64,000 nt of DNA, taken from positions 446,005-510,004 of the forward strand of contig PKTK01000001.1 of assembly GCA_002869165.1 (NCBI GenBank), in the 5' to 3' direction. The position numbers and the translations under genes are program-made. The notes below the pieces were generated by a model. The model saw only the letters and a list, made by a program, of their open reading frames with translations, did no database searches and had not been told where the DNA came from. This document shows positions 1,446 to 62,086 of the stretch, one piece after another; positions within the stretch are counted from its first letter, which is position 1; the number at the start of each line of letters is the position of its first letter. The stretch is from Candidatus Parcubacteria bacterium. Its GTDB lineage: Bacteria; Patescibacteriota; Patescibacteriia; Patescibacteriales; UBA12075.

Positions 1446-2492
1446 ATGTACGAAGAAATTTTAAAAAAATACGAAGAACTTGAAAACCAAATGCAGGATC
1501 CTGCTATTATTTCTGATGTTTCAAAAATGACTAAAACATCCAAGGAACTATCAGAATTAAAAGATGTTGTTACAAAAATCAAAGAAATCAATTCCATCCT
1601 TATATCTATAAAAGAAAACGAAGAAATAATGGACTCCGAACCAGATTCTGAACTAGCTGAAATTGCTGAAATGGAAATAAATGATATGAACACAAGAAAA
1701 GCGAATCTAGAAGAAAAAATTGAAGAAGAGTTAAATCCCGATGATCCAAACGACAAAAAAAATATTATTATGGAAATCAGAGCCGGAACAGGTGGAGATG
1801 AGTCTGCTCTATTTGCTGCTGAACTATTTCGTATGTATTCACGTTTTGCTGAAACAAATGGTTTTAAAATAAATATACTTGATTCAAATACTATTGGAAT
1901 TGGCGGGTTCAAAGAAGTCATCTTTGAAATAAAAGGAACTGGCGCTTATAGTATATTCAAATACGAAGCAGGAACTCATCGCGTACAAAGAGTACCAGAA
2001 ACTGAAAAACAAGGTCGAGTACATACCTCTGCAGTTACAGTAGCAGTTTTGCCTGAAGTTGAAGAAGTAGAAATAGATATTAAAAACGAAGATCTACGAA
2101 TCGATACCTATGCTGCTTCCGGGCCTGGTGGACAATGTGTAAATACCACCAATTCAGCCGTAAGAATCACTCATATCCCAAGCGGACTAGTAGTTCAATG
2201 CCAAGACCAAAAAGATCAGCACCAAAATAAAGACAAGGCCATGCAAATACTACGAAGTCGTTTACAAGCCAAAATCGATGAAGAAAAGCAGGCTACTGAA
2301 TCAGCGCAAAGAAAATCGCAAATCGGTTCAGGCGACAGATCAGAAAAGATCAGAACCTATAACTTTCCTCAAGACAGAATTACAGACCACAGGATAAAAA
2401 AATCCTGGTCAAATATGCAGAACATCCTTGGTGGAGACCTAAGCGATGTCCTTGCCTCGTTAAAACAAGCAGAAAAAGAACAAAGGCAATAA
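1446..2492 (+). CDS. prfA: peptide chain release factor 1
   Basis: GGQ motif ([11 protein letters not shown]) and RF1-type block [18 protein letters not shown] (PxT tripeptide is PET here); followed by prmC as in many bacteria. Confidence 0.95.
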
Positions 2493-9263: not shown

Positions 9264-9362
9264 ACGCTTCTCAGGATGGGTTCGAATAATCTTTGTCAAC
9301 TCAAAATAAAAAATCGCCTCTTCGAGACGATTGTTTATTCTGAGCCGACAAAGGGACTCGAA
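9264..9362. repeat. 99-bp direct repeat, copy 1 (terminator flank + last ~20 nt of tRNA-Thr)
   Basis: Nearly identical to 9447-9545; ends ...gccgacaaagggactcgaa, the T-loop-to-3' end of tRNA-Thr, then diverges. Confidence 0.85.
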
Positions 9363-9446: not shown

Positions 9447-9545
9447 ACGCATCTCAAGATGGATTCGAATAATCTTTGTCAACTCAAAATAAAAAATCGC
9501 CTCTTCGAGACGATTGTTTATTCTGAGCCGACAAAGGGACTCGAA
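9447..9545. repeat. 99-bp direct repeat, copy 2 (overlaps the real tRNA-Thr 3' end)
   Basis: Same sequence as 9264-9362, offset 183 bp. Confidence 0.85.
9488..9514 (-). terminator. terminator after tRNA-Thr
   Basis: Minus strand cgtctc-gaa-gaggcg hairpin followed by atttttt; the same hairpin follows tRNA-Lys. Confidence 0.55.
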
Positions 9546-9598
9546 CCCATGACCCACGGTTTACAAAACCGTTGCTCTACCAGCTGAGCTATGTCGGC
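9526..9598 (-). tRNA. tRNA-Thr (anticodon UGU)
   Basis: Manual cloverleaf: acceptor gccgaca/tgtcggc, D arm gctc-agctggta-gagc, anticodon stem acggt/accgt with loop tTTGTaa, T arm with ttcgagt; no encoded CCA. Confidence 0.9.
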
Positions 9599-9753
9599 AT
9601 ATTATTTAACATCAATATTTAAATATCAATATTTATCTTTTCAATAAAACTTATAATACACAATATTTCAAAATAGGTCAATACTGTGGATAAAAAGACA
9701 TTTTATATTCAAAAACCATTCATATCACCAAAAACACCTTGTTTTAGAGGGGC

Positions 9754-9781
9754 TTGACAATACTATATGTTGTGGTAAAAT
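9754..9781 (+). promoter_or_regulatory. sigma70-like promoter with extended -10
   Basis: TTGACA (9754-9759), 16-nt spacer, TGgTAAAAT (9773-9781); no ORF before the terminator at 10004-10040. Confidence 0.4.
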
Positions 9782-10003
9782 AGATAATATAATACAAGAT
9801 ATAGTATTTCCAAAAATAAAACTTTGCTTTAATTACGCCCTTAGTATTGTACTTGAGACGGTTGCTAAATTACTAATACACATGTGATTTTCACGTATTA
9901 CGATGTTTAGCCCATCTTAGGTATAATTCTGGGGGTGTATTTTTTACTAAAAACTAATAAAGTGTTAAACAATTTTTTTCTTATTTATAGTTATTACAAA
10001 ATT

Positions 10004-10040
10004 AAAACAGGCGCTTATTTTAAGATCGCCTGTTTTTTGT
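10004..10040. terminator. bidirectional rho-independent terminator
   Basis: aaaacaggcg-13 nt-cgcctgtttt with T-runs on both strands; closes the promoter-defined plus transcript and the minus zinc-ribbon ORF. Confidence 0.7.
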
Positions 10041-10041
10041 T

Positions 10042-10173
10042 TTAATTTCTTTTTTGTCCTGCCCCACCGCAAACACAACAATCATTGTCTGATTTTCCCG
10101 TCCCCTTACAATGAGCACATTTGACAACTACCTTTTCTTATAATTTAAACTTAGGCATTTTATTGCTTGTCAT
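10042..10173 (-). CDS. small zinc-ribbon protein (CxxCxGxG x2) interrupted by in-frame TAA
   Basis: SD aggaag 7 nt before ATG 10173; MTSNKMPKFKL[TAA 10138-10140]EKVVVKCAHCKGTGKSDNDCCVCGGAGQKRN; the zinc-finger part has no start codon of its own. Confidence 0.4.
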
Positions 10174-10202
10174 GACAAACTTCCTACTTAGTGTTTTAAA
10201 TT

Positions 10203-10442
10203 TCACCGGATAAAAATTGAAAAGTAAAAATACATAACACATGATATTAAAAATATTTTTCCACAAAAAATCCCTTTACTTAGCAACCCACCGACTTCTT
10301 CTTCAAAATAATAGTCCTCTATAAACAAAGGTGAAATAATTACTCTTATAAATGCTATGAAAAAAAGATAGACAAATAATACTAATGTGTAAGTAAGTAA
10401 CATCAAAAAGACTGACAATGTGATTTGAAATACAGCCTCCAT
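10203..10442 (-). CDS. hypothetical small membrane protein
   Basis: Strong SD aaggaggg before ATG; two hydrophobic helices. Confidence 0.45.
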   Translation of the reverse strand: MEAVFQITLSVFLMLLTYTLVLFVYLFFIAFIRVIISPLFIEDYYFEEEVGGLLSKGIFCGKIFLISCVMYFYFSIFIR

Positions 10443-10633
10443 TTCTACCCTCCTTTTTTAAAAGATCTTTCATTTTTATTATCACAAAAATAGTTTTTAA
10501 TCAAGTATTAATTGTAAATTTGTATTTATTGTTAATATTTTAAAATAAAAAGATTAAATTTAATCCTTTTTATTAAATTAGTAATTACAATTCAGTAACA
10601 TCTCAGGGCAGGTTCTCATCTGCTAGTCACACA

Positions 10634-10660
10634 AAACAAAAAACGCCTCTTCGAGACGTC
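10634..10660 (-). terminator. terminator after tRNA-Lys
   Basis: Minus strand cgtctc-gaa-gaggcg hairpin followed by ttttttgtttt. Confidence 0.55.
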
Positions 10661-10669
10661 TTTTTTTTG

Positions 10670-11008: not shown

Positions 11009-12406
11009 ATGAGTAATATGTCTAACCAAATATTAGAAAAATTACCACCCCAGAACCTAGAAGCTGAACAGCATTTTCTAGGCTCTATTTTGCTTGACAA
11101 GGATGCTATCATCAAAGTCGGTGACATGATCAGACCTGATGATTTTTATGACTCAAAACACAGGTTGCTTTATGAAATAATGATTGAATTATATTCAAAA
11201 CATGAACCAATTGATGTTGTTAGTATTAGTAATCTCTTAAAAGAAAAAAACAAGCTTGAACAAGTCGGTGGTAGAACTTATCTTGCCAAACTATCAAATG
11301 TTGCTATTACTCCTACTAGCATAGTTAACTATGCTCATATTATCCAAAAAAAGGCTACTCTGAGACGTCTACTAAAAGCTGCTTCAGAAATAACAGAACT
11401 AGGGCAAAAAGAAGATGAGGAAGTTGATGCACTACTAGACAACGCTTAAAGAAAACTTTTTTCCGTTTCTCATAATTACTTAAAAGAATCCTTTACCCCA
11501 GTTGACACACTTCTAAATGATGCCTTTGAAAGAATTGATGAATTACATAAAATGAGCGGAAAACTCAGGGGTATCCCAACTGGATTCGGTGATTTGGACA
11601 ATCTTCTAACAGGATTACAGAAATCTGACTTGATCATCCTGGCTGCTAGACCATCTGTAGGTAAAACATCGTTTGCCCTAGATATAGCCAGACAAGCAGC
11701 CGTAACACACAAAGCAGCTGTAGGAATATTTTCACTTGAAATGAGTAAGGAACAGCTAGTTGATCGTATGCTTTGCGCTCAATCAAATGTTAGTCTATGG
11801 AAAATGAGATCTGGTAAGCTATCTGACTCTGACGCCAATAATGACTTTGCCAAAATTGCTGAAGGTATGGGACATCTTTCTGAGGCACCTATATACATCG
11901 ACGACTCCCCTAACTGCTCAGTAATGGAGATTCGAACTAAAGCTAGGAGATTAAAGGCTGAAAAAAATCTTGATTTGCTAATAATTGACTACCTCCAACT
12001 CATGGAAGGTCGTGGTAAACATTCTGACAATCGTGTTCAAGAAGTAGCTGAAATTTCTAGTGGTCTCAAGGGTATTGCTCGTGAATTAAATATCCCAGTT
12101 ATTGCCCTCTCACAGCTTTCTCGTGCAGTTGAACAAACCAAACCAGCTATCCCAAAGCTTGCTCATCTTAGAGACTCTGGTTCTATTGAACAAGATGCTG
12201 ATGTAGTTATGTTTATTTATAGAAAATCCGCTGACAGGAACTACAACAAAGAAGAATTATCAGCCGAAGAAAAGAACGCTGGTGAAATCCATGTTGCCAA
12301 ACACAGAAATGGTCCAACCGGAAAAGTAAATCTATTCTTTGATGAAGTAACCGTTAGTTATAAAAACATGGCTAGAGTTGATTACCAAGAGCCACCTCAA
12401 CAATAA
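11009..12406 (+). CDS. dnaB: replicative DNA helicase DnaB, single in-frame TAA at 11447-11449
   Basis: ORFs 11009..11449 and 11552..12406 are in one frame; N-terminal domain (PPQNLEAEQHFLGSILLD), linker, Walker A ARPSVGKTSF, IDYLQLM, SQLSR; total 465 codons, as expected for DnaB. Confidence 0.9.
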
Positions 12407-25650: not shown

Positions 25651-27381
25651 CTAATATCCTTTTTTCTTTTTATAAGTTGTATGCAAGACACTATGTTCGT
25701 AGTGATGCCCCTTGGCCCTTAGCCAGTCTAATACTTTCTTCACTGCCATATTGTCGTGGGCTTTCCTAATCTTCCTGTCTTTATCGTGCTTGTATAATGC
25801 TTCTATTCTCTTTTTTCTTATCTCCCAGCTAGTGGGAATTGGTTGTCCACCTCCTCCAATACATCCACCCGGACAACTCATTACTTCAATATAATGATAA
25901 TCATCCAGTTTTTCTAAAACTTTTTTAATATTTCCAATACCGTTTACCACTGCAACATTATATTTATTGCCAGCTATTTATACTTCAGCTTCCTTTAAGC
26001 CATCTATGCCTCTTACGTCTTCAAATTCAAGCCTAGAGTCACAAAGTGAATCATCACTTCCCTGACAAGCCAAATATTGAGCAGTTCGCAAAGCTGATTC
26101 CATTACTCCTCCGCTAGCCCCATAAATTGCAGCTGCGCCACTATATTCGCCAAGAGGATTATCAGCTTGACTTGGATTAATCTTAGCTAGGTTAATCTCA
26201 TTTTTTTTAAGTAAAAAAGCTAGTTCCCTATTGGTCAAAACATAATCAACTGGCAAACTACCTTTAACCTTCATCTCTCCTCTACTCGCCTCATATTTTT
26301 TAGCTGTACAGGGCATCACTGACACTATCTCAATATCTTTGGGTTTTATGCCCATATTTTGCGCCCAATAAGTCTTGATAATACCCCCCATATGCATATT
26401 TGGAGAACGTGAAGTGGTAATATTCGGAATTAAATCGGGACGATATATTTCTACGTAATTCACCCAGGCAGGACAGCAAGAAGTCATCATAGGTAAGGGC
26501 TTTTTTTCGACAATACGTTCGATTAACTCGCCTGCTTCAACCATGGTGGTAACATCTGCTGCAAAATTAACATCAAATACATAGTCGAAACCGAGCTGTC
26601 TAAGAGATGAAACTATTCTATCTGTTGTTTCTTCACCAGGTTCCAAACCGAATTCTTCACCAATACTTACTCTGATCGAAGGGGCAAAAATGGCAACTTT
26701 TGTTTTTTTCTTTTTACTGATAAGTTTTTCAACATCAGCACAATTAAACTGCTCCTGTGCTGCGCTAACTGGACAATGAACAGCACACTGACCACACAAT
26801 ATACACTGAACTTTTGAATCCTTAACTGGTCTAACTTCTTGATTTTCTCCCTTGCCAGCTATTTCTAGATAGTTTATCCCTTGCATCGCACAAGCATCAA
26901 TGCAATTCCGACAATCAATACACTGTGTAGCATCAAGCTCAACAGCATTTGCAAATTTATATACCTTTCTGTCTCCTTTTCTATCTTCAAATCTATTTAT
27001 ATTTAAATTATATTCCTTAGCGTATTTAAGTAACGGGCAGTTAAAGCGCCATAAACAATCAGGGCACTTCTCAACATGGTCAGCGTAAATTAGTTCTAAA
27101 TTGGTTTTACGAGATTTTTGCACTCTATCGGTGTTTGTTTCGATTTCCATACCTTCCTCAACTTTTGTAGAACATGATGTTTGTAAATTTTTTCTATTTT
27201 TAACTTCTACCACACAAACCCGACAGTTTGCATGTGGTGGAAAATCATCATGCTGACAAAGAGTAGGGATGTCTATTCCTTTTTCTCTAGCAACCTGAAG
27301 AATAGTCATTCCTTCATCACAAGAGACTTGTTGGCCATTCAATTTAATTTTTATTTTCTTCCTTGGCATCTTTGCTGTCAT
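25651..27381 (-). CDS. hydA: [FeFe]-hydrogenase HydA (2Fe-2S + 4Fe-4S + H-cluster domains), single in-frame TAA at 25978-25980
   Basis: ORFs 25978..27381 and 25651..25950 are in one frame; TSCCPAW, MPCTAKKYE upstream and CPGGCIGGGGQP downstream of the TAA; total ~576 codons, as for clostridial HydA; real start may be MPRKK (27369). Confidence 0.9.
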
Positions 27382-27786: not shown

Positions 27787-28833
27787 CTAACTAAAACAAT
27801 CACAAATCATCTTCTTTTCATAATCAGGTAGGTCAATTTTCTTTTCTGGAATATTAACCAAAACATTTTCAATATAGCTTCGAATCGCAATTGGAGCTGC
27901 GCAACCAAGACCACAAAAACTTGACTCCGCTAGATTATCTAAAATTTCTCCAACCACATCCCAGTCAGGTTCATCATCAACAAGCATTTCTTTCAAACGA
28001 TACAGACCATCTCTACAGGGAGTACATTGACCACATGACTCTTTTTGAAAAAAATCGATCCATTTTCGAAACAATTCAATTGGTTCATATTTATAAGTAC
28101 TATAAACAGTTATAGAACCACTCCCTAATACAGGTTTGTTTATTTGATCGCCATTTAGAACCACTCCACTAGCATCACCGCCTACCTGAACAAAAAAATC
28201 AAAATCAGGATAATTATTGGTTTTTTTAAGAATTTCATCCATATTCAGTGATTCTGGCATTTCATACACACCTCTTTCAAAGCAATCACCATTTATTGTT
28301 ACAAATCTTTTACCTTCATATCTGTTTTGCGAAATCAAACATACATGATAGAAGGTTTCTGGATTATTTACCAAAGTAGGCATATTCCAAAGACCATTAG
28401 TAGTTGGGAATGGTGGTCTAAGTCTTGGTTCAACCTTGTGGCCTTCTATATGATTAAGGGCTGATGTTTCTTCTCCGCCAATATATCCGGCTGTATGAGA
28501 TTTTTTGAATATTTCAAAATTTTTACCTTTGCTTAGCTCTTTGAGATTTTTGTAATATTTTTTGTAATAATCAGGATTTAAATACACAAAAGCATCTTCA
28601 GCACCAATTGTATCCATGGCAATCTTCATTCCTTCAATCATTTCAAGCGCATAATTCTTTAAAATATACTCGTCCTTTTTTACCCCTGGCTCTCCTTCAG
28701 AAAAATTACACACTACATATTTTTTAGGACCAATTGCCTTTGCGACCATTTCCCATTTTTTTGCAGTCGGAAAACAGCCACCCCCACGGCCGACTAAATT
28801 CGCTTTCTCAATTTTCTTAATAATATCCTCCAT
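27787..28833 (-). CDS. NuoF-like flavoprotein/Fe-S subunit (hydrogenase partner HydB-like, short form)
   Basis: GRGGGCFPTAKKW, GEPGVKKD, GGEETSALN, ESCGQCTPCRDG, SFCGLG blocks of the NADH dehydrogenase 51-kDa family. Confidence 0.75.
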   Translation of the reverse strand: MEDIIKKIEKANLVGRGGGCFPTAKKWEMVAKAIGPKKYVVCNFSEGEPGVKKDEYILKNYALEMIEGMKIAMDTIGAEDAFVYLNPDYYKKYYKNLKELSKGKNFEIFKKSHTAGYIGGEETSALNHIEGHKVEPRLRPPFPTTNGLWNMPTLVNNPETFYHVCLISQNRYEGKRFVTINGDCFERGVYEMPESLNMDEILKKTNNYPDFDFFVQVGGDASGVVLNGDQINKPVLGSGSITVYSTYKYEPIELFRKWIDFFQKESCGQCTPCRDGLYRLKEMLVDDEPDWDVVGEILDNLAESSFCGLGCAAPIAIRSYIENVLVNIPEKKIDLPDYEKKMICDCFS

Positions 28834-28959
28834 TGTTTCTCCTTTGTTTTTATCCTTGTTATATGAAGATACTTATATATTAAATTCTAAAATCTAATAC
28901 CTAAATCCTAAATAATTTCAAAATTACAATTCTTTAAATTCAAAAAAATTTCTATTAAT

Positions 28960-29319
28960 TTATTTACATTTTTCTATGATTGAGCCGAATATTTTTGTTA
29001 ATTCTATTGATTCTTTTATTAAGTTTTTTCTTTCTATCTCTAAATCTTCGTTAAAATTTATCAATTTAAGCCAATAGGTGCTTTCTTTTGCTTCTTTTCG
29101 GCTAATTTTAATTCTATGAATAAAATCTTTTTTACTTAATGACTCGTTAGCTTCAATATAATTTGCCCCAACTGAACCAGATGATCTGACTAGTTGTTTT
29201 GAATCTTCTAAATTACAAATATCTTTCTTAATTCTTCTCACCAATAATCTCACATCTCTAGCAAACGCAAATGTCCTATCTTCCAAATCATAATAATTTG
29301 CGCTTTTTGTTTTGGGCAT
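28960..29319 (-). CDS. four-helix-bundle protein (23S rRNA intervening-sequence protein family, TIGR02436-like)
   Basis: SVGANYIEANESLSKKDFIHRIKISRKEAKESTYWLKLI signature. Confidence 0.8.
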   Translation of the reverse strand: MPKTKSANYYDLEDRTFAFARDVRLLVRRIKKDICNLEDSKQLVRSSGSVGANYIEANESLSKKDFIHRIKISRKEAKESTYWLKLINFNEDLEIERKNLIKESIELTKIFGSIIEKCK

Positions 29320-29381
29320 TTTTATTTAAATAATTTGTATTTGTTTAGGATTTATAATTTAGGGTTTAGGATTTTAAAAAG

Positions 29382-30395
29382 TTATATTAACTTTTTCTTC
29401 CCAATATACTCAACCAAATCAGCTAATCTAGCTGAATAACACCATTCGTTGTCGTACCAGGCTACTACCTTGAGTAAATCTCCATCAATCACCTTGGTAC
29501 ACGATAAATCAACTGTAGAACTAGCAGGATTACCAATAAAGTCTGAAGAAACTAATGGCTCATCAGTAACCGATAAATAGTCTTTTAATTTGGCTGATTT
29601 ACTTGCTTTCTTGAAAACCGCATTCACTGTTTTTTCGTCAACTTTTTTCTTGGTAACAAGAACCATATCTACTAGCGAAGCCACTGGAGTTGGCACCCTG
29701 ACTGCCATACCATCAAATTTGCCTTTCAAACTTGGAATAGTGATAGTAGTAGCGATAGCAGCGCCAGTTGTCGTTGGTACGATATTAGCAGCTGCTGCTC
29801 TAGCTCGACGCAGATCTTTGTGAGGGGCATCTACAATACGCTGATCAGCTGTATATGAATGAATAGTGGTCATCATAGCTTTCTTGATGCCAAAATTATC
29901 TTTCAAAACTTTTGTAATTGGTGCTAAACAATTAGTAGTACATGAAGCATTGGAAATAACTTTGTCCGTCTTTTTTAGTTTTTCTTCATTTACTCCAAGA
30001 ACAATTGTTTTTACTCCCCCACCTTTGGCTGGTGCTGAGATAAGTACTTTTTTAGCACCTGCTTTGATATGCTTACTTGCTGTTTCTTTTGTTCTAAAAA
30101 TCCCAGTACATTCAAGAACTATATCAACCTGCATGTCTTTCCATGGCAAGTTTTCCGGTTCGCGTTCTGCTAGAATCTGTATTTTCTTGCCTGCAATTTT
30201 TACAAAATCCTTTCCTACTTCAACTTTTTTCTTATATTGCTTATAGCAAGTATCATACTTAAATAAATGCATCAAAGTTTCTGAATCAGTTAAATCATTG
30301 ATGGCAACAACATTAAGATTTGCATTCTTTTTATCCAAAAGAATCTTTAAAGTGGCCCTACCGATACGGCCAAACCCATTAATAGCGATATTCAT
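29382..30395 (-). CDS. gap: glyceraldehyde-3-phosphate dehydrogenase, type I
   Basis: INGFGRIGR, catalytic SNASCTTNCLAP, WYDNEW. Confidence 0.95.
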   Translation of the reverse strand: MNIAINGFGRIGRATLKILLDKKNANLNVVAINDLTDSETLMHLFKYDTCYKQYKKKVEVGKDFVKIAGKKIQILAEREPENLPWKDMQVDIVLECTGIFRTKETASKHIKAGAKKVLISAPAKGGGVKTIVLGVNEEKLKKTDKVISNASCTTNCLAPITKVLKDNFGIKKAMMTTIHSYTADQRIVDAPHKDLRRARAAAANIVPTTTGAAIATTITIPSLKGKFDGMAVRVPTPVASLVDMVLVTKKKVDEKTVNAVFKKASKSAKLKDYLSVTDEPLVSSDFIGNPASSTVDLSCTKVIDGDLLKVVAWYDNEWCYSARLADLVEYIGKKKLI

Positions 30396-31722: not shown

Positions 31723-32523
31723 TTAAAGTGAGAATCTTACAAACTTTTCAATTTTAGCATCTCCGAGAACATCTTCAATTTTTTTCTTATCATCTTTGAT
31801 AAATTCTTGCTTTAGAAGACATACTTCAGAATAATATTTTTCAATTTTTCCTTTCAAAATATTTTCAATAATATTTTCTGGCTTACCTTCTTTTAGAAGT
31901 TGCTCTTTATATATTTCTTTTTCCTTGTCTGTTTCATCAGCTGGAACTTCACTAGGATCAATATATTTAGGACTTGAGGCAGCAATATGCATGGCAATGT
32001 CTTTAGCTAGTTCATTATCGATCTTTTTGTCAAATGATACTAAAACACCAATTTTACCACCCATATGAGAATAAGCAGCTACTGAACCATTTTCTGATTT
32101 TAGCATTTCTATCCCTTTAACGCCCATTTTTTCGCCAATTGTTCCACTTAGATTATCTAGGGTTTCTTGAGCTGTTCCTTCTGACATGGGTTCTGCCATT
32201 AACTCTTCAAGTGAAGCTGGTTTTTTACTTTTTAGAATTTAAAATAACTCTTTGGCATAAGCTTGAAATTTATCGTTTTTTACAACAAAATCAGTTTCAG
32301 CGTTTATTTCAAAAGCATAACCTTCGGTATTATCTTCATTTGTTTCAACTAACACAATACCTTCATTGGTTTCTCTTTCACCTCTTTTAGCTGCTTTTGC
32401 AATTCCTTTTTTACGTAGGATCTCTACTGCCTTTTCAATATCTCCGCCAGTCTCATCAAGAGCTTTTTTACATTCAACCATGCCTGCTCCTGTTTTTTCA
32501 CGAAGTAATTTAATTTTTTCCAT
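31723..32523 (-). CDS. tsf: elongation factor Ts, single in-frame TAA at 32239-32241
   Basis: ORFs 32239..32523 and 31723..32199 are in one frame; UBA-like N-terminus [24 protein letters not shown], then ...KPASLEEL...IGEK... and C-terminal module; downstream of rpsB. Confidence 0.9.
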
Positions 32524-32668: not shown

Positions 32669-33358
32669 TTAGGCTTTCTTTTTTACTCCACTCAATGTAT
32701 CTTTGATAGCATTCAAAACCAATTTAATAGTTTTAGTTGCATAATCATTTGATGGAATTGGATATTTAATTCCAGTTGGATTGGTGTTGGTATCACAAAT
32801 CGCCACTACTGGAATATTCTTCTTTTTTGCTTCCAAGATTGCGGTTTTTTCAATTTTGATGTCCCAAATAAACAAAGCATCAGGAAGTTTGTTCATATTA
32901 GTCAAACCACCTACCTTAAGCTCTAATTTTTCGATCTCTCTAGAAATTTCCAGTTGCTCTTTTTTGGTATATCTACTTAATTTACCAGTTGACTTATCAT
33001 CAAGAAGGTCTTTGTACTTTTTAATAAGTTTTTTGATTACCAAAAAATTTGTCAAAGTTCCACCCATCCATTTCTCACAAATATAAGGTTGGTTAAGATC
33101 TGTAGCTGTTTTTTTAATAAGTTCTTTGACTTGCATTTTTGTACCTACAAAAAGAATGGTTTTTCCTTCTTCTGTAAGCTTGGTCATAAAGGCAAGCGCA
33201 TCTTCAAATTTTTGCTTAGATTGAACTAAGTCAATAATGTGAACACCGTTTCTTTTGCCAAAAATAAAAGGCGCCATTTTGGGATGCCACTTACTAGTTC
33301 GGTGGCCAAAATGCATGCCTGACTTAAGCATTTGTTCAATGCTAGGAATTTTACTCAT
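32669..33358 (-). CDS. rpsB: 30S ribosomal protein S2
   Basis: MLKSGMHFGHRTSKWHPKM, ILFVGTK, classic S2 blocks. Confidence 0.95.
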   Translation of the reverse strand: MSKIPSIEQMLKSGMHFGHRTSKWHPKMAPFIFGKRNGVHIIDLVQSKQKFEDALAFMTKLTEEGKTILFVGTKMQVKELIKKTATDLNQPYICEKWMGGTLTNFLVIKKLIKKYKDLLDDKSTGKLSRYTKKEQLEISREIEKLELKVGGLTNMNKLPDALFIWDIKIEKTAILEAKKKNIPVVAICDTNTNPTGIKYPIPSNDYATKTIKLVLNAIKDTLSGVKKKA

Positions 33359-33721: not shown

Positions 33722-34147
33722 TTATATTTCACAACAAATAAGTCTTGCTTGAATTCCACAATCAGTATCATTTATTGTATATAGCACGGTTCTTTCATCC
33801 TGCATATAGTCACCAACATAATCCTTATCCACCGTACAACCATGATATTCATACCCCTGTCTTCTTTTCATTGAATGACTTACTATAATCTCGTCTGCGT
33901 CACAGCTTAATGTCAAGTTTTTGTCAAATGTTAAGCCTTCAACTACACGACACTTGTTTGATATTCCTCCAAAATCATCATCTAGATTATTCCACATCGT
34001 CTGGGTAACAGTATCTCCAGCTGACATATTATAACTATTTAAATAAGCTAATACATATGCTCCAAAAGGAGAAAGAACAGCGGCCGAGATAATTAAAACA
34101 AACATAATAACAAATATGGCCGTCAATTTTATTTTAATATTTTTCAT
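33722..34147 (-). CDS. Cys-rich small membrane-anchored/secreted protein, paralog 3
   Basis: Shares AYLNSY...MWNNLDDDFGGIS..C..V.G....L.LSCDADE..V.HSM.R...C......DERTV......DCGIQA.L.CC with 34247..34663 and 34676..35089; likelier start MKNIKIK (34147). Confidence 0.7.
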   Translation of the reverse strand: MKNIKIKLTAIFVIMFVLIISAAVLSPFGAYVLAYLNSYNMSAGDTVTQTMWNNLDDDFGGISNKCRVVEGLTFDKNLTLSCDADEIIVSHSMKRRQGYEYHGCTVDKDYVGDYMQDERTVLYTINDTDCGIQARLICCEI

Positions 34148-34246
34148 ATTTTTTATTATTATAAAATTAAATAAACTTATAGGGTTCAAAACATTTTATC
34201 CCTAGTTTAAAGCTAAAATAAAACCTAGTTTCCAGCTGAAATTATT

Positions 34247-34663
34247 TCAGTCCAATTTACAACAAAGCAATGTTGCCTGAATGCCACAATCAGCATCATC
34301 CAGTCTAAAAAAAACAGTTCTTTCGTCTTGTATCTCATCACCAAAATAATGTTTCATTTCACAATTAGCACTCTCAGGAACCCTTCTCATAGAATGACTA
34401 ACAACAACTTCATCAGCAGCACAAGAAAGAGTCAAAGTTTCTGCATATTCTAAGCCTTCAACAATATGACAATCACTAGAGATTCCTCCAAAATCATCAT
34501 CTAGATTATTCCACATTTCTTCTGTCAATAAGTCCCCCTCTGCTTTTTCGTAACTATTTAGATATGCCAAAACATAAGACCCAAAAGGCAAAAGAACGGC
34601 AACGGAAACAATCAAAACAAATATGATTACAAATGATGTAGTTAGAAATTTTAAATTTTTCAT
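34247..34663 (-). CDS. Cys-rich small membrane-anchored/secreted protein, paralog 2
   Basis: Same architecture: N-terminal hydrophobic helix, six conserved Cys, C-terminal CGIQATLLCC. Confidence 0.7.
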   Translation of the reverse strand: MKNLKFLTTSFVIIFVLIVSVAVLLPFGSYVLAYLNSYEKAEGDLLTEEMWNNLDDDFGGISSDCHIVEGLEYAETLTLSCAADEVVVSHSMRRVPESANCEMKHYFGDEIQDERTVFFRLDDADCGIQATLLCCKLD

Positions 34664-34675
34664 ATTTTTTATATT

Positions 34676-35089
34676 TTAAATATCACAACAAATTAACTTT
34701 GCACGAATTCCACAATTTACATCCTCTATGCTAAACCAAACTGTTCTTTCATCTCGTACACTATCTCCAACATATGCTCTTATATCACAGCCAGAATCAT
34801 TTCTCCTTATCATTGAGTGGTTAATAACCGTCTCATCTGCATCACAAGAAAGAGTCATTTCTTGCGCATATGTTTCACCTGAAACCACACGACAATCGCC
34901 ACTAATTTTACCAAAGTCATCATCAAGGTTATTCCACATCTCTACAGATAATAAATCTCCAGACGACTTTTCGTAGCTATTTAAATAAGCCATAACATAA
35001 GATCCAAAAGGCGACAAAACAGCAACGGAAACGACAAAAACAAACACAGTAACAAACGAAATAGCTAATGTTGATTTATAGTTTTTCAT
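34676..35089 (-). CDS. Cys-rich small membrane-anchored/secreted protein, paralog 1
   Basis: Same architecture; C-terminal CGIRAKLICCDI. Confidence 0.7.
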   Translation of the reverse strand: MKNYKSTLAISFVTVFVFVVSVAVLSPFGSYVMAYLNSYEKSSGDLLSVEMWNNLDDDFGKISGDCRVVSGETYAQEMTLSCDADETVINHSMIRRNDSGCDIRAYVGDSVRDERTVWFSIEDVNCGIRAKLICCDI

Positions 35090-46439: not shown

Positions 46440-48539
46440 ATGATATTTTTTGATAAAAAGCACAAAAGAAAAATCTTGTTTAGAATTATTATAATTTTCT
46501 TAATAGTTATGTTTTTTGCACTAAGTGGTAACTTGGCCATTAGTTTAGCTACCACTAAATATGGGGAAATCTACATTGATTATAGTGCTTATTACACTGA
46601 TGACAAAGAAAAAAAACTGGCCCTTACATTTGATGATGGTCCGCATAAAAGAAACACGCTAAAAATCCTCAAAGTCCTAAACGATAACGATATTAAAGCC
46701 ACTTTTTTCTTTCAAGGGCAAAATATTATTAGCAACCATGATGTAGTCAAACAAGTCTATGAAGCTGGCATGGAAATCGGTAATCACAGTTTTACTCATT
46801 CGAAAAATGTTCACAGTTCTCCAACTAGGTTGAAATACGAACTAAACTTAACCAGCGAATTATTGGAAGATATCACAGGAGAGCCAGCTCTTCTGTACCG
46901 ACCACCGTTTCTACTTGATGTTGGTGGAGATCCAATCTACTTTCCCCAAGACAATATTCCTATACTAGACCAAATTCAAGCTGAGGGTTATATTGTAATT
47001 GGCGCTGATATAGACCCTAAAGACTGGGATGTAAAAAGCCCTCAAGAGGTAGTAGATAATATTGATAAGGTAATTGATAATGGCAATATAATACTTCTTC
47101 ATGATGGAGGAAAAGAAGTTAGACACACGGTTTATGCGCTAGACACTATTATAAAAAAATACAAAGATCAAGGCTACACCTTCACAACAGTATCAGATAT
47201 TATTGGTTTAAAAGAAGATAAGACAACTAAAACGACTAACAATTCCCTATTATCTACCATCCAAGCTAAACTAGACTCTATTTATCTTTATCTTCTAACT
47301 ATTTTTAGTTTCCTGTTTATTGATATTATTATAAAAGCCCTGGTGATACTGGCTCTTCTTAGACTTGTTTTTGTTTTAATATTATTTAATATTGATAATC
47401 TCAAAAAATTCAAAAGAGAGAAAAAACCTGACAAATCCCCTCCAAGTGTAGCCGTAGTAATTCCTGCCTATAACGAAGAAGCTAGCATTGCTTCAACTAT
47501 CAAAAGTGTACTAAACAATACCTATAAGGTAGACGAAATAATAGTAATGAACGATGGATCCACTGACAGCACAAAAAAAATAGTAAAAGATTTAGCATTG
47601 AAATACTCGCAAATAAAGTTATTTAATCTTAAAAACGGGGGTAAAGCCAGAGCCCTGAATCACGCCTTCCTAATCTCTCAAAAAGATATTCTGATCTGCA
47701 TGGATGGTGATTCAATCTTTGAAAAGAATGCTATCGGCCATTTGATAAAGAATTTTGATGACCCACTAGTAGCTGCTGTAGCCGGCAAGGTATCAGCTAT
47801 TGTAAAGAAGAATTACATTGGGGGCTTTCAGCAAATCGAATATATTATAGGTCAAAACATTGAAAAAGCCTCTTTTAGTACTGTAAATGCTGTTGGGGTG
47901 GTGCCGGGCCCAATCGGTGCTTGGAAAAGAAGGGTCGTAAATGCGCTTGGTGGATACTCAAAAGACACACTGGTAGAAGACCAGGACTTAACTCTGGCCA
48001 TACTTAGTCAGGGGTTTGAAATTCGTTATGAACCGCGCGCCCTATGCTATACCGAAGCCCCTACCAATATCAAAGATTTTTCCAAACAAAGATTTAGATG
48101 GATATATGGTACTATGCAATGCTTCTGGAAATACAAAAAATTTCTCTTTAATCCAAAGAGAAAAAATCTGGGTATGATGATCATGCCAAATATACTTTTA
48201 TATAACACTTTTGTCCCGTTTTTCTCGCCAATGATTGATCTGTTTGCTATTCTTGCTATCTTTACCGGCCAATTCCATGGTGCTTTACTTGCTTATAATT
48301 TCTTTACTTTATTTGATATTTTGTATGCGGGGTCAGCTTTTCTCATTGGCAATGAAAAGAAAAATTGGCACTTGCTTCTACTCATACCTGCCCAAAGAAT
48401 TTTCTACAGACAAATCCTTTATTATATTGTCATCAAATCTCTTATCAAAGCTATAGAAGGGACCAGTGCTTTTTGGAACAAAGTTGAAAGAAACGGTAAT
48501 CTGGAAAAATTTTACTCTAATAATTTAAAACACGCCTAA
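46440..48539 (+). CDS. fusion protein: NodB-type polysaccharide deacetylase + processive family-2 glycosyltransferase (PgaB/PgaC-like)
   Basis: TFDDGP, NHSFTH, LLHDG (deacetylase); VVIPAYNEE, DGSTD, MDGDS, QRFRW plus C-terminal TMs (GT2 synthase). Confidence 0.8.
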   Translation: MIFFDKKHKRKILFRIIIIFLIVMFFALSGNLAISLATTKYGEIYIDYSAYYTDDKEKKLALTFDDGPHKRNTLKILKVLNDNDIKATFFFQGQNIISNHDVVKQVYEAGMEIGNHSFTHSKNVHSSPTRLKYELNLTSELLEDITGEPALLYRPPFLLDVGGDPIYFPQDNIPILDQIQAEGYIVIGADIDPKDWDVKSPQEVVDNIDKVIDNGNIILLHDGGKEVRHTVYALDTIIKKYKDQGYTFTTVSDIIGLKEDKTTKTTNNSLLSTIQAKLDSIYLYLLTIFSFLFIDIIIKALVILALLRLVFVLILFNIDNLKKFKREKKPDKSPPSVAVVIPAYNEEASIASTIKSVLNNTYKVDEIIVMNDGSTDSTKKIVKDLALKYSQIKLFNLKNGGKARALNHAFLISQKDILICMDGDSIFEKNAIGHLIKNFDDPLVAAVAGKVSAIVKKNYIGGFQQIEYIIGQNIEKASFSTVNAVGVVPGPIGAWKRRVVNALGGYSKDTLVEDQDLTLAILSQGFEIRYEPRALCYTEAPTNIKDFSKQRFRWIYGTMQCFWKYKKFLFNPKRKNLGMMIMPNILLYNTFVPFFSPMIDLFAILAIFTGQFHGALLAYNFFTLFDILYAGSAFLIGNEKKNWHLLLLIPAQRIFYRQILYYIVIKSLIKAIEGTSAFWNKVERNGNLEKFYSNNLKHA

Positions 48540-60264: not shown

Positions 60265-60480
60265 AAATAACCAAACAATATTTAATGTTTGGTTATTTTT
60301 TATTTCTAATTTGTTTGTTTCTTATATCCTTGTATCTTTCAAATCCCAACGAAGTCAAAAAATATCATAGTTAATCCCAATATTCTCGAGATTCTTCGCT
60401 TCCGCTCAGAATGACACTAAGGAGAAGTATTCTTAATTCTTAATTCTTAATTCTTAATTCTTAATTCTTAATTCTTAATT
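60265..60480. repeat. composite intergenic repeat, copy 3 with (TTCTTAA)7
   Basis: AACCAAACA-n8-TGTTTGGTT + T-run (60269-60300), tail ctaatttgtttgtttc, right arm gagattcttcgcttccgctcagaatgacac (60388-60417), seven TTCTTAA units + TT (60430-60480). Confidence 0.85.
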
Positions 60481-60945: not shown

Positions 60946-62086
60946 CTTTCAAAATATCATTTTGAACTTTTTGCATTAAAGTAGTGTAAAATTCCAAGTT
61001 GTGTAAGCTAGCAAGTCTGGCTCCGAGTGGATCTTTGATCTTTTGCAGATGATGAAGATAACTTTTCGAATGATTTCGCAACAAAGACAAGTTTGAACTT
61101 TCATTTATAGCTGACTCATCACTAAAATATTTTGAATTAGCAATATTTAATGTTTTTTAAAACTTAAGAACTTTCCCTTTGGCACCGACCAACTTTTCTG
61201 AACTAAAATAAAATAACCTGCCATGTCGTCCTTCCCTAGTTGGTATAACACAATCAAAAATATCCCATCCCATTAGAACAGACCTGACAATATCTTCTGG
61301 TGTACCTACCCCCAAAGCAAAACGAAAATTATTCGTAGGGATAGAAATGGCTGTAGCTTGCATCACCTTATCCAAAAAGTTTCCCTCTTCATCAACCGGC
61401 CTAGCTCCATAACCATAACCATCAAAACCTATTTTCTGTAACTCTAAAGAACAAAACTCTCTTTTATCAATATCCTTTGCCCCTTGAATAACAGCTATAA
61501 GTAAAGGGCGATTTTTTTTATTTATTTTTCGTCTTATCAACTCTTCTTCAAAGCTGTGCTTACAATCCTTGGCCCACTCTATGGTTCTATTGATAGCTTG
61601 GTCAAGCTTCTTTTCTGAAGCATCATTGGGATGACAATCATCGAGACAGATTACCATATCAGTTCCCAAATCCATTTGTATCTGAATAGATTTTTTTGGT
61701 GTTAATTCGTGCCACGAACCATCAATCGGTGATTTGAACCTAGCTCGTTCGTTATTAATACTTCCCATTTTCCCTTCACCTCTATGTATCAATGAAAAAA
61801 CCTGAAAGCCGCCTGAATCAGAAATCAAAGGGATATTGGTATTCATGAACTTGTGGACTCCTCCTTGTTTTTTAATTAACTTGGCGCCAGGCTGGAGATA
61901 AAGATGAAAAGTATTTACTACCATTGCGGGTAAGCCTAAATCTTCAATTTCAGACTGTGACAAGCCCTTGAGTACCGCCCGAGTAGCATCAGGCATAAAG
62001 AATGGTGTCTTAAGTATGCCATGGGGAGTTTTAAGCTCTGTCACCCGAGCTTTTGTAATATTTGATTGTTTAATTATGTTTAACAT
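60935..62086 (-). CDS. tgt: tRNA-guanine transglycosylase (Tgt) homologue, single in-frame TAA at 61157-61159
   Basis: Track ORF 61157..62086 (DSGGFQVFSL, LGVGTPEDIV, FDCVIPTREGRHG) continues in frame after the TAA for 73 codons: ...NSKYFSDE...SYLHHLQKIKDPLGARLASLHNLEFY...; total 383 codons, as for Tgt. Confidence 0.85.

Follow-up and report, generated by a model that had tools for sequence, protein, structure and literature searches.

In-frame TAA codons in four genes of a Candidatus Parcubacteria assembly are very probably G:C>T:A consensus errors

The stretch of DNA analysed here, a window of 64,000 nt, belongs to a 584,723-bp contig of the NCBI metagenome-assembled genome 'Candidatus Parcubacteria bacterium' (locus tags C0583_), and it contains conserved genes whose reading frames are each broken by a single TAA codon. 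The question raised by this locus is whether UAA is decoded as an amino acid at these sites, whether the genes are decaying, or whether the deposited sequence is in error. A first-pass annotation had listed five equivalent cases, in dnaB, hydA, tsf, tgt and a small 'zinc-ribbon' open reading frame (ORF), and had offered context-dependent readthrough or a suppressor tRNA, G-to-T errors and gene decay as explanations. Comparison with other assemblies of the same genome suggests that the TAA codons in the four genes are, with high probability, G:C>T:A consensus errors of this deposited assembly, pointing to a data-quality artefact instead of a new genetic code. The stops are truly present in the deposited sequence, yet they would not be a biological feature of the organism.

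Four interrupted genes and a native fifth stop codon

The TAA in dnaB is seen on translating positions 11009-12406, and the cases in hydA, tsf and tgt were recovered by a six-frame scan for long open stretches split by a single stop (Table 1). As previously described, each of the four genes contains one in-frame TAA and no indel, and the protein reading carries on past every stop. The same scan also returned several chance pairs in non-coding frames, as well as position 34676, which is an ordinary boundary of tandem paralogues. The window has a GC content of ~33% and is densely coding, with gene models occupying 84% of positions 1018-64000. When gene models are carried over from sister assemblies, none of the 61 has an in-frame stop apart from these four, and no in-frame TAG or TGA occurs in any of them, upholding the statement that all of the gene-breaking stops are TAA.

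The small CxxCxGxG-type open stretch does not belong with these genes, and the grouping of five equivalent cases therefore stands for dnaB, hydA, tsf and tgt only, because the small-ORF TAA is native: it is also present in ENA and JGI, the two assemblies that cover positions 10138-10140. The proposed reading on the minus strand is MTSNKMPKFKL-TAA-EKVVVKCAHCKGTGKSDNDCCVCGGAGQKRN, with no ATG, GTG or TTG within 31 codons after the TAA. The ORF was reported by no gene caller, has no Pfam match beyond a sub-threshold hit to DUF5351, and has no homologue in a search of 5.8 billion proteins; tblastn against 80 distant and two close syntenic loci returned only noise. It sits in a 1,071-nt spacer between tRNA-Thr and tRNA-Lys in which Rfam detects the two tRNAs and nothing else, and the corresponding spacers of two syntenic relatives measure 286 and 587 nt and lack the ORF. 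Its two CxxCxGxG-like motifs are a curiosity. By these comparisons the small ORF appears unrelated to the artefact, and they provide no evidence of an interrupted gene.

Table 1. Coordinates of the genes, stop codons and assembly-private substitutions in the 64,000-nt window.
Feature	Position	Strand	Remarks
prfA (RF1)	1446..2492	+	intact; PxT tripeptide (PET) and GGQ
small CxxCxGxG-type open stretch	10042..10173	-	in-frame TAA 10138-10140, native; not shown to be a gene
dnaB, replicative helicase, 462 codons	11018..12406	+	in-frame TAA 11447-11449 = codon 144, very probably artefactual; GAA in other assemblies
dnaB stop	11447..11449	+	TAA via G>T at 11447; ENA, Logan and JGI all GAA
dnaB, second private change	12059		CGT>AGT, missense R348S
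hydA, [FeFe]-hydrogenase-type, 576 codons	25651..27381	-	in-frame TAA 25978-25980 = codon 468, very probably artefactual; GAA elsewhere; C>A on + strand at 25980
tsf (EF-Ts), 266 codons	31723..32523	-	in-frame TAA 32239-32241 = codon 95, very probably artefactual; GAA elsewhere; C>A on + strand at 32241
tgt, queuine tRNA-ribosyltransferase, 383 codons	60935..62086	-	in-frame TAA 61157-61159 = codon 310, very probably artefactual; TAC (Tyr) elsewhere; G>T on + strand at 61157
tgt, second private change	61632		missense P>H
private C>A	3068, 7374, 8121, 8277, 12059, 17218, 18916, 22181, 25172, 25980, 28852, 29441	+	
private C>A, rest	31045, 31588, 32241, 35187, 39561, 42216, 47167, 50227, 55985, 56157, 60558	+	
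private G>T	3938, 5220, 11447, 14632, 30090, 30727, 30842, 36706, 44676	+	
private G>T, rest	45147, 48245, 55194, 55762, 56734, 59213, 59353, 61157, 61632	+	
other private changes	40085; 47355		C>T; A>C

Private, unselected substitutions in the deposited assembly

Three further public assemblies of the same genome (ENA ERZ794999, Logan SRR5894289 and JGI 3300007102) were compared with the window over positions 1018-64000, that is, 62,983 of its 64,000 bases. The sister pieces, comprising an ENA contig, Logan contigs and the 129-kb JGI contig Ga0102541_1058941, were gathered via exact-protein look-ups. A search with the read-through DnaB protein led to P0001, whose 462 aa are listed at 100% identity; it carries Glu in place of the stop and Arg in place of the window's Ser348, and otherwise matches the window DnaB. 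The protein is encoded on a Logan SRR5894289 contig and on ENA ERZ794999 NODE_4, a contig of 500,921 bp with a coverage of 23. A scan of the genome collection for the dnaB site, with either G or T allowed at the variable base, returned no match, and the genome is accordingly not a GTDB species representative. At the dnaB, hydA, tsf and tgt sites the other assemblies carry the sense codons GAA, GAA, GAA and TAC, and the gene products called in them are intact (DnaB 462-465 aa, HydA 576, EF-Ts 266 and Tgt 383), including a 576-aa HydA in all three. The earlier suggestion that GAA to TAA fits the dnaB and hydA columns is thus borne out and extends to tsf, the tgt codon being TAC. The first-pass annotation had taken reads supporting a sense codon at these sites as the sign of an assembly or consensus error, and at the level of independent assemblies a sense codon is what is seen. 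Alignments to the sister assemblies are ungapped except for an extra 7-bp repeat unit in ENA, in an intergenic ATTCTTA array, and the window has no indels relative to JGI, in agreement with the reported lack of frameshifts.

The four stops are part of a larger set of differences. Relative to the other assemblies where these agree, the window has 43 private substitutions, consisting of 23 C>A, 18 G>T, one C>T and one A>C. G:C>T:A transversions thus account for 41 of the 43 (40-41 of these 41 being private to the window), and the probability of at least 41 of 43 falling in one of the six substitution classes is ~8e-30. All four gene-breaking TAAs are members of this private G>T/C>A set. ENA equals Logan wherever the two were compared, and JGI sides with both at all 35 of the window-private G:C>T:A sites that it covers. 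The window's private missense proteins are the NCBI nr entries PLX28027-PLX28076 (C0583_02xxx), and exact look-up returns the reference versions from JGI, Logan and ENA; since the private alleles are present in nr as PLX280xx, the errors belong to the deposited record. The protein collection likewise contains the GAPDH of the window (PLX28049.1). It lacks the window's C-terminal DnaB ORF, as would be expected if the NCBI pipeline flagged dnaB as a pseudogene.

The JGI assembly appears to have the same G:C>T:A problem at a lower dose, as eight of its nine private differences are of this class and occur at a lower rate than in the window; one of them, a TCA>TAA at 47194, splits a 699-aa glycosyltransferase/deacetylase gene. 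A C>A at 32743 (rpsB D206Y) is common to the window and JGI and lies outside the 41. A low-coverage contig from ERZ794998, a sister sample, has nine private SNPs of mixed types, which is how true strain variation looks here; it covers three of the window-private sites and matches the reference at each of them.

The G:C>T:A changes are spread over the window at ~0.65 per kb, altering ~0.19% of G/C positions, with no clustering on the scale of read length (4 gaps of <=200 nt vs 4.9 expected, simulation P=0.75). They are symmetric between strands, G>T making up 18 of the 41 vs 40.6% expected (p=0.75), and the plus-strand G>T:C>A ratio of 18:23 matches the 8,619:12,614 ratio of G to C sites. Sequence context is biased: 35 of the 41 strike a G with a purine 3' (a C after a pyrimidine) vs 21.8 expected (p=1.4e-5), and the TCA context is hit 12 times vs 4.8 expected, while CCG>CAG, with two events vs 0.8 expected, is not dominant.

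The private G:C>T:A changes show no sign of selection. When G>T or C>A is applied to all 21,233 G/C sites of the reference version, the neutral expectation is 10.6% nonsense, 67.6% missense, 8.3% synonymous and 13.4% intergenic, and the 41 observed changes are distributed as 4 nonsense, 27 missense, 5 synonymous and 5 intergenic vs 4.36, 27.73, 3.41 and 5.5 expected (chi-square p=0.84). Conservation was assessed both in homologues and in two relatives, L096 and L097, that have ~80% DnaB identity and are syntenic, both retaining the rpmE-prfA-prmC ... dnaB-ybaB-recR order; the closest DnaB relatives in the genome collection are Falkowbacteria/Patescibacteria with <=73% identity. Orthologue columns were checked, as had been proposed for these sites: DnaB column 348, Ser in the window, is R in 120 of 120 homologues, and the stop column 144 is E in 119 of 120 and in both relatives. 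At seven of ten tested non-synonymous sites, among them FtsW G236C, UppS G184V and DnaB E144, L096 and L097 keep the reference residue, and the window residue occurs in them only once, in a poorly aligned segment. The window alleles are thus derived and unfiltered.

The uniform use of TAA follows from how an AT-rich genome uses its codons and does not point to recoding. G:C>T:A can create 2,256 stops in this sequence, of which 1,441 (64%) are TAA, arising from GAA (951), TCA (341) and TAC (149), with TAG and TGA making up 18.5% and 17.6%. The probability that four of four new stops are TAA is therefore ~0.17 (0.639^4), and four nonsense changes among 41 compares with 4.4 expected from random hits.

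Origin of the changes and competing explanations

A G>T artefact would consist almost exclusively of C>A/G>T, would not be reproduced in other assemblies and would fall at random with respect to function. The window changes are of this class in 41 of 43 cases, are missing from the other assemblies, and occur in neutral proportions (p=0.84) with an invariant DnaB arginine among the residues lost. The option of G-to-T errors put forward earlier is accordingly the one favoured by the data, all four gene-breaking TAAs being assembly-private G>T or C>A changes amid 41 such unselected changes. The organism itself would encode GAA, GAA, GAA and TAC at the four sites, with G/C positions of the record converted randomly with respect to gene function; about one in ten such changes would produce a stop, mostly TAA, GAA being the most abundant codon that G:C>T:A turns into a stop.

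At the level of assembled sequence the changes are shown to be private and unselected, and their chemical or technical origin is inferred. The source would most likely be technical, either guanine oxidation to 8-oxoguanine (8-oxoG), whether of the DNA itself or during library making, or miscalling of G as T, and the assembly procedure would have carried oxidised or miscalled bases into the consensus. Guanine is most readily oxidised when it is the 5' base of a GG or GA step, and the context bias is compatible with oxidation at this position. Library-level oxidative artefacts normally occur at low allele fraction, and it sits uneasily with an artefact that 41 errors reached the consensus of a genome that was assembled elsewhere at ~23x; possible routes include a different or lower-coverage library, or the behaviour of the assembler. 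Two further observations do not fall naturally under the error model. The C>A at 32743 is present in more than one assembly, and an A lies directly 3' of all four TAAs, which the error model does not predict (P ~0.014 by composition, post hoc).

C>A/G>T changes are the signature of 8-oxoguanine arising in sample preparation, where they occur in a CCG>CAG context, at low allelic fraction, and are recognised by read orientation, with G>T in read 1 and C>A in read 2 (Costello et al. 2013, Nucleic Acids Res 41:e67; PMC3616734). The window resembles this artefact in that nearly all of its changes are C>A/G>T, in that they do not recur when the same DNA is treated independently and bear no signature of biological selection, and in that the mutated C mostly follows a pyrimidine, the published CCG>CAG context also having a 5' C. 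It differs in that the errors are found in an assembly consensus and are known from assemblies alone, and in that the main context in this 33% GC genome is TCA (12 of 41), not the CCG>CAG peak of PMC3616734.

The best-surviving alternative, though an improbable one, is that the assembly is the genome of a real sub-lineage with a G:C>T:A mutator phenotype and that the TAAs are genuine recent nonsense alleles, produced for example through loss of MutY/MutM-type 8-oxoG repair or because oxidative damage suffered in situ became fixed in a small population. Deficiency of MutY/MutM (the GO system) yields mainly G:C>T:A transversions that are strand-symmetric, so that a spectrum of 41 of 43 G:C>T:A without strand bias is also what such a lineage would produce; the C>A common to two assemblies and JGI's own private G:C>T:A changes would suggest variant molecules in the DNA pool. 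A living lineage of this kind, however, is filtered by purifying selection as it propagates, whereas nonsense and missense changes in the window occur at neutral proportions, with stops in dnaB and tsf and loss of the invariant DnaB arginine. The transitions or indels of the kind that accompany real divergence here, as represented by the ERZ794998 contig, are also lacking. By extrapolation, 0.65 changes per kb would place several hundred on the 585-kb contig, about one in ten of them nonsense, a load incompatible with a viable reduced genome.

A related scenario, which we regard as less probable again, places the lesions in vivo, in a Patescibacteria population without 8-oxoG repair, so that each assembly would draw on a swarm of genomes mutated by oxidation; cells with a TAA-bearing dnaB or tsf would survive temporarily, perhaps via leaky termination at UAA-A.

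Ordinary pseudogenisation in a reduced, symbiont-like genome is very improbable. Patescibacteria have reduced genomes in which gene loss is common, and in-frame stops would be annotated as pseudogenes, but decay would be expected to leave mixed lesions that persist in related genomes. The window has a single mutation class in neutral ratios and no indels or frameshifts, dnaB and tsf are among the genes struck, the population sampled also contains the intact alleles, and the flanks are otherwise identical, with no accumulated decay; the earlier proposal of gene decay finds no support on these grounds.

If an ochre-suppressor tRNA or context-dependent readthrough allowed UAA to be decoded at some sites, or if the codon were partly reassigned, full-length proteins would still be made. 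Known examples of stop recoding include UGA>Gly in Gracilibacteria/SR1, UGA>Trp in Mollicutes and TAG/TGA in phages, and the window shares with such systems a surface symptom only, namely conserved genes with one type of in-frame stop and no frameshifts. Four conserved genes, essential ones included, with one TAA each, Glu at three of the four columns and an A after every TAA would be in keeping with suppression. Reassignment would, however, place the same codon in independent data from the organism or its relatives, at columns of one amino acid, and the codon would rarely end genes; a cognate tRNA and a lost or altered release-factor specificity would also be expected. Here the stops are missing from ENA, Logan and JGI, which have sense codons, and the dnaB relatives have E; the residues replaced (E, E, E and Y) are not one consistent amino acid, the fourth column being Tyr.

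TAA is also the main terminator of the window, ending 41 of the 61 gene models, compared with 12 for TAG and 8 for TGA, as the first-pass annotation had recognised. That account also placed terminator hairpins after the TAAs of rpmE, prfA, prmC and recR, and the scan found a hairpin after TAA for recR only, which has two terminator-like hairpins 3' of its stop. RF1 is intact and retains its PET and GGQ motifs, providing evidence that UAA is read as stop. ARAGORN, run on the 64,000-nt window, identified tRNA-Thr(UGU) and tRNA-Lys(UUU) only, and no suppressor tRNA. The TAAs are accompanied by 27 missense changes of the same class, beyond rescue by any suppression. The readthrough, suppressor or recoding option is not supported and has almost no probability.

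Implications for the deposited genome

The four TAAs, as probable consensus errors, have no biological import and offer no evidence that this Patescibacteria genome recodes or suppresses UAA or that its genes are decaying. What they concern is data quality: a public metagenome-assembled genome with ~0.65 G:C>T:A consensus errors per kb in the window, which disrupt essential genes and change dozens of proteins now listed in NCBI nr as PLX280xx entries. Records of this kind can mimic alternative genetic codes, and G:C>T:A errors mimic TAA reassignment in particular because this error class makes mostly TAA in AT-rich genomes. Signals of a single stop type without frameshifts therefore need a check of the substitution spectrum and of sister assemblies before recoding is claimed.

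Differences among assemblies of the genome and a related strain

Private changes of the G:C>T:A class are not confined to the window: when the same genome is compared across assemblies, 8 of the 9 private differences of the JGI assembly (contig Ga0102541_1058941) belong to it. A TCA>TAA change private to JGI breaks the 699-aa GT2/polysaccharide-deacetylase gene into calls of 398 aa and 251 aa. The only G:C>T:A variant found in two assemblies is a C>A at window 32743 (rpsB D206Y), present in the window and the JGI assembly and absent from ENA and Logan; it may reflect either true polymorphism or an error that arose more than once. The sole indel between the assemblies lies in the ATTCTTA tandem repeat, where the ENA assembly carries one more unit than the window.

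The coding-strand base directly 3' of the artefactual TAA codon is A in all four affected genes, namely dnaB (window 11450), hydA (25977), tsf (32238) and tgt (61156). Calculated post hoc from first-codon-position composition, the probability of this is about 0.014; the pattern falls outside what the consensus-error model explains and is probably due to chance.

The sister-sample contig L010 carries nine private SNPs of mixed type, comprising transitions and several transversion classes, in contrast to the single-class differences of the window. The sister sample holds a second, slightly different strain.

Positions of repeat, gene and contig features within the window
Feature	Window position	Strand	Remarks
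PF05635 gene ('23S rRNA-intervening sequence protein' family), 119 aa	28960-29319	-	
Three tandem paralogous genes, about 140 aa each	33722-35089	-	
GT2/polysaccharide-deacetylase gene, 699 aa	46440-48539	+	
Sites of JGI private changes	47174 and 47194		JGI contig loci L004/L011
7.4 perfect tandem copies of the 7-bp unit ATTCTTA	60429-60480		spacer between hemerythrin-like and DUF2914 genes
L010 (ENA ERZ794998 NODE_11205)	28174-30280		coverage 2.5

The tRNA-Thr/tRNA-Lys spacer

The spacer between tRNA-Thr and tRNA-Lys (window 9598-10669) spans 1,071 nt, compared with 286 and 587 nt in the syntenic relatives, and contains the CxxCxGxG mini-ORF with its native in-frame TAA. The hairpin AATCGTCTCGAAGAGGCGATT is located just downstream of tRNA-Thr (9495-9515), with an identical copy outside the spacer (9312-9332), and a similar hairpin follows tRNA-Lys (10638-10664). 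A past insertion or duplication may have left this long spacer and the recurring hairpins as a remnant.

Tandem paralogues, a PF05635 gene and strand composition

The three tandem paralogues carry a hydrophobic segment at the N-terminus, and their C-termini end in ...CGI(Q/R)A.L(I/L)CC(E/D/K).... Adjoining them are genes for a TPR protein and for a glycine-rich protein of 563 aa. The single TAA that separates two of these paralogues, at 34676-34678, marks an ordinary boundary between genes. Elsewhere, the PF05635 gene is flanked by gap and a NuoF-like gene.

Across the whole window most genes are carried on the minus strand, and GC skew is negative in all 4-kb bins (C exceeding G on the plus strand, with a cumulative value of -3.0). 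Together, the skew and the strand bias are consistent with the window lying inside one replichore.
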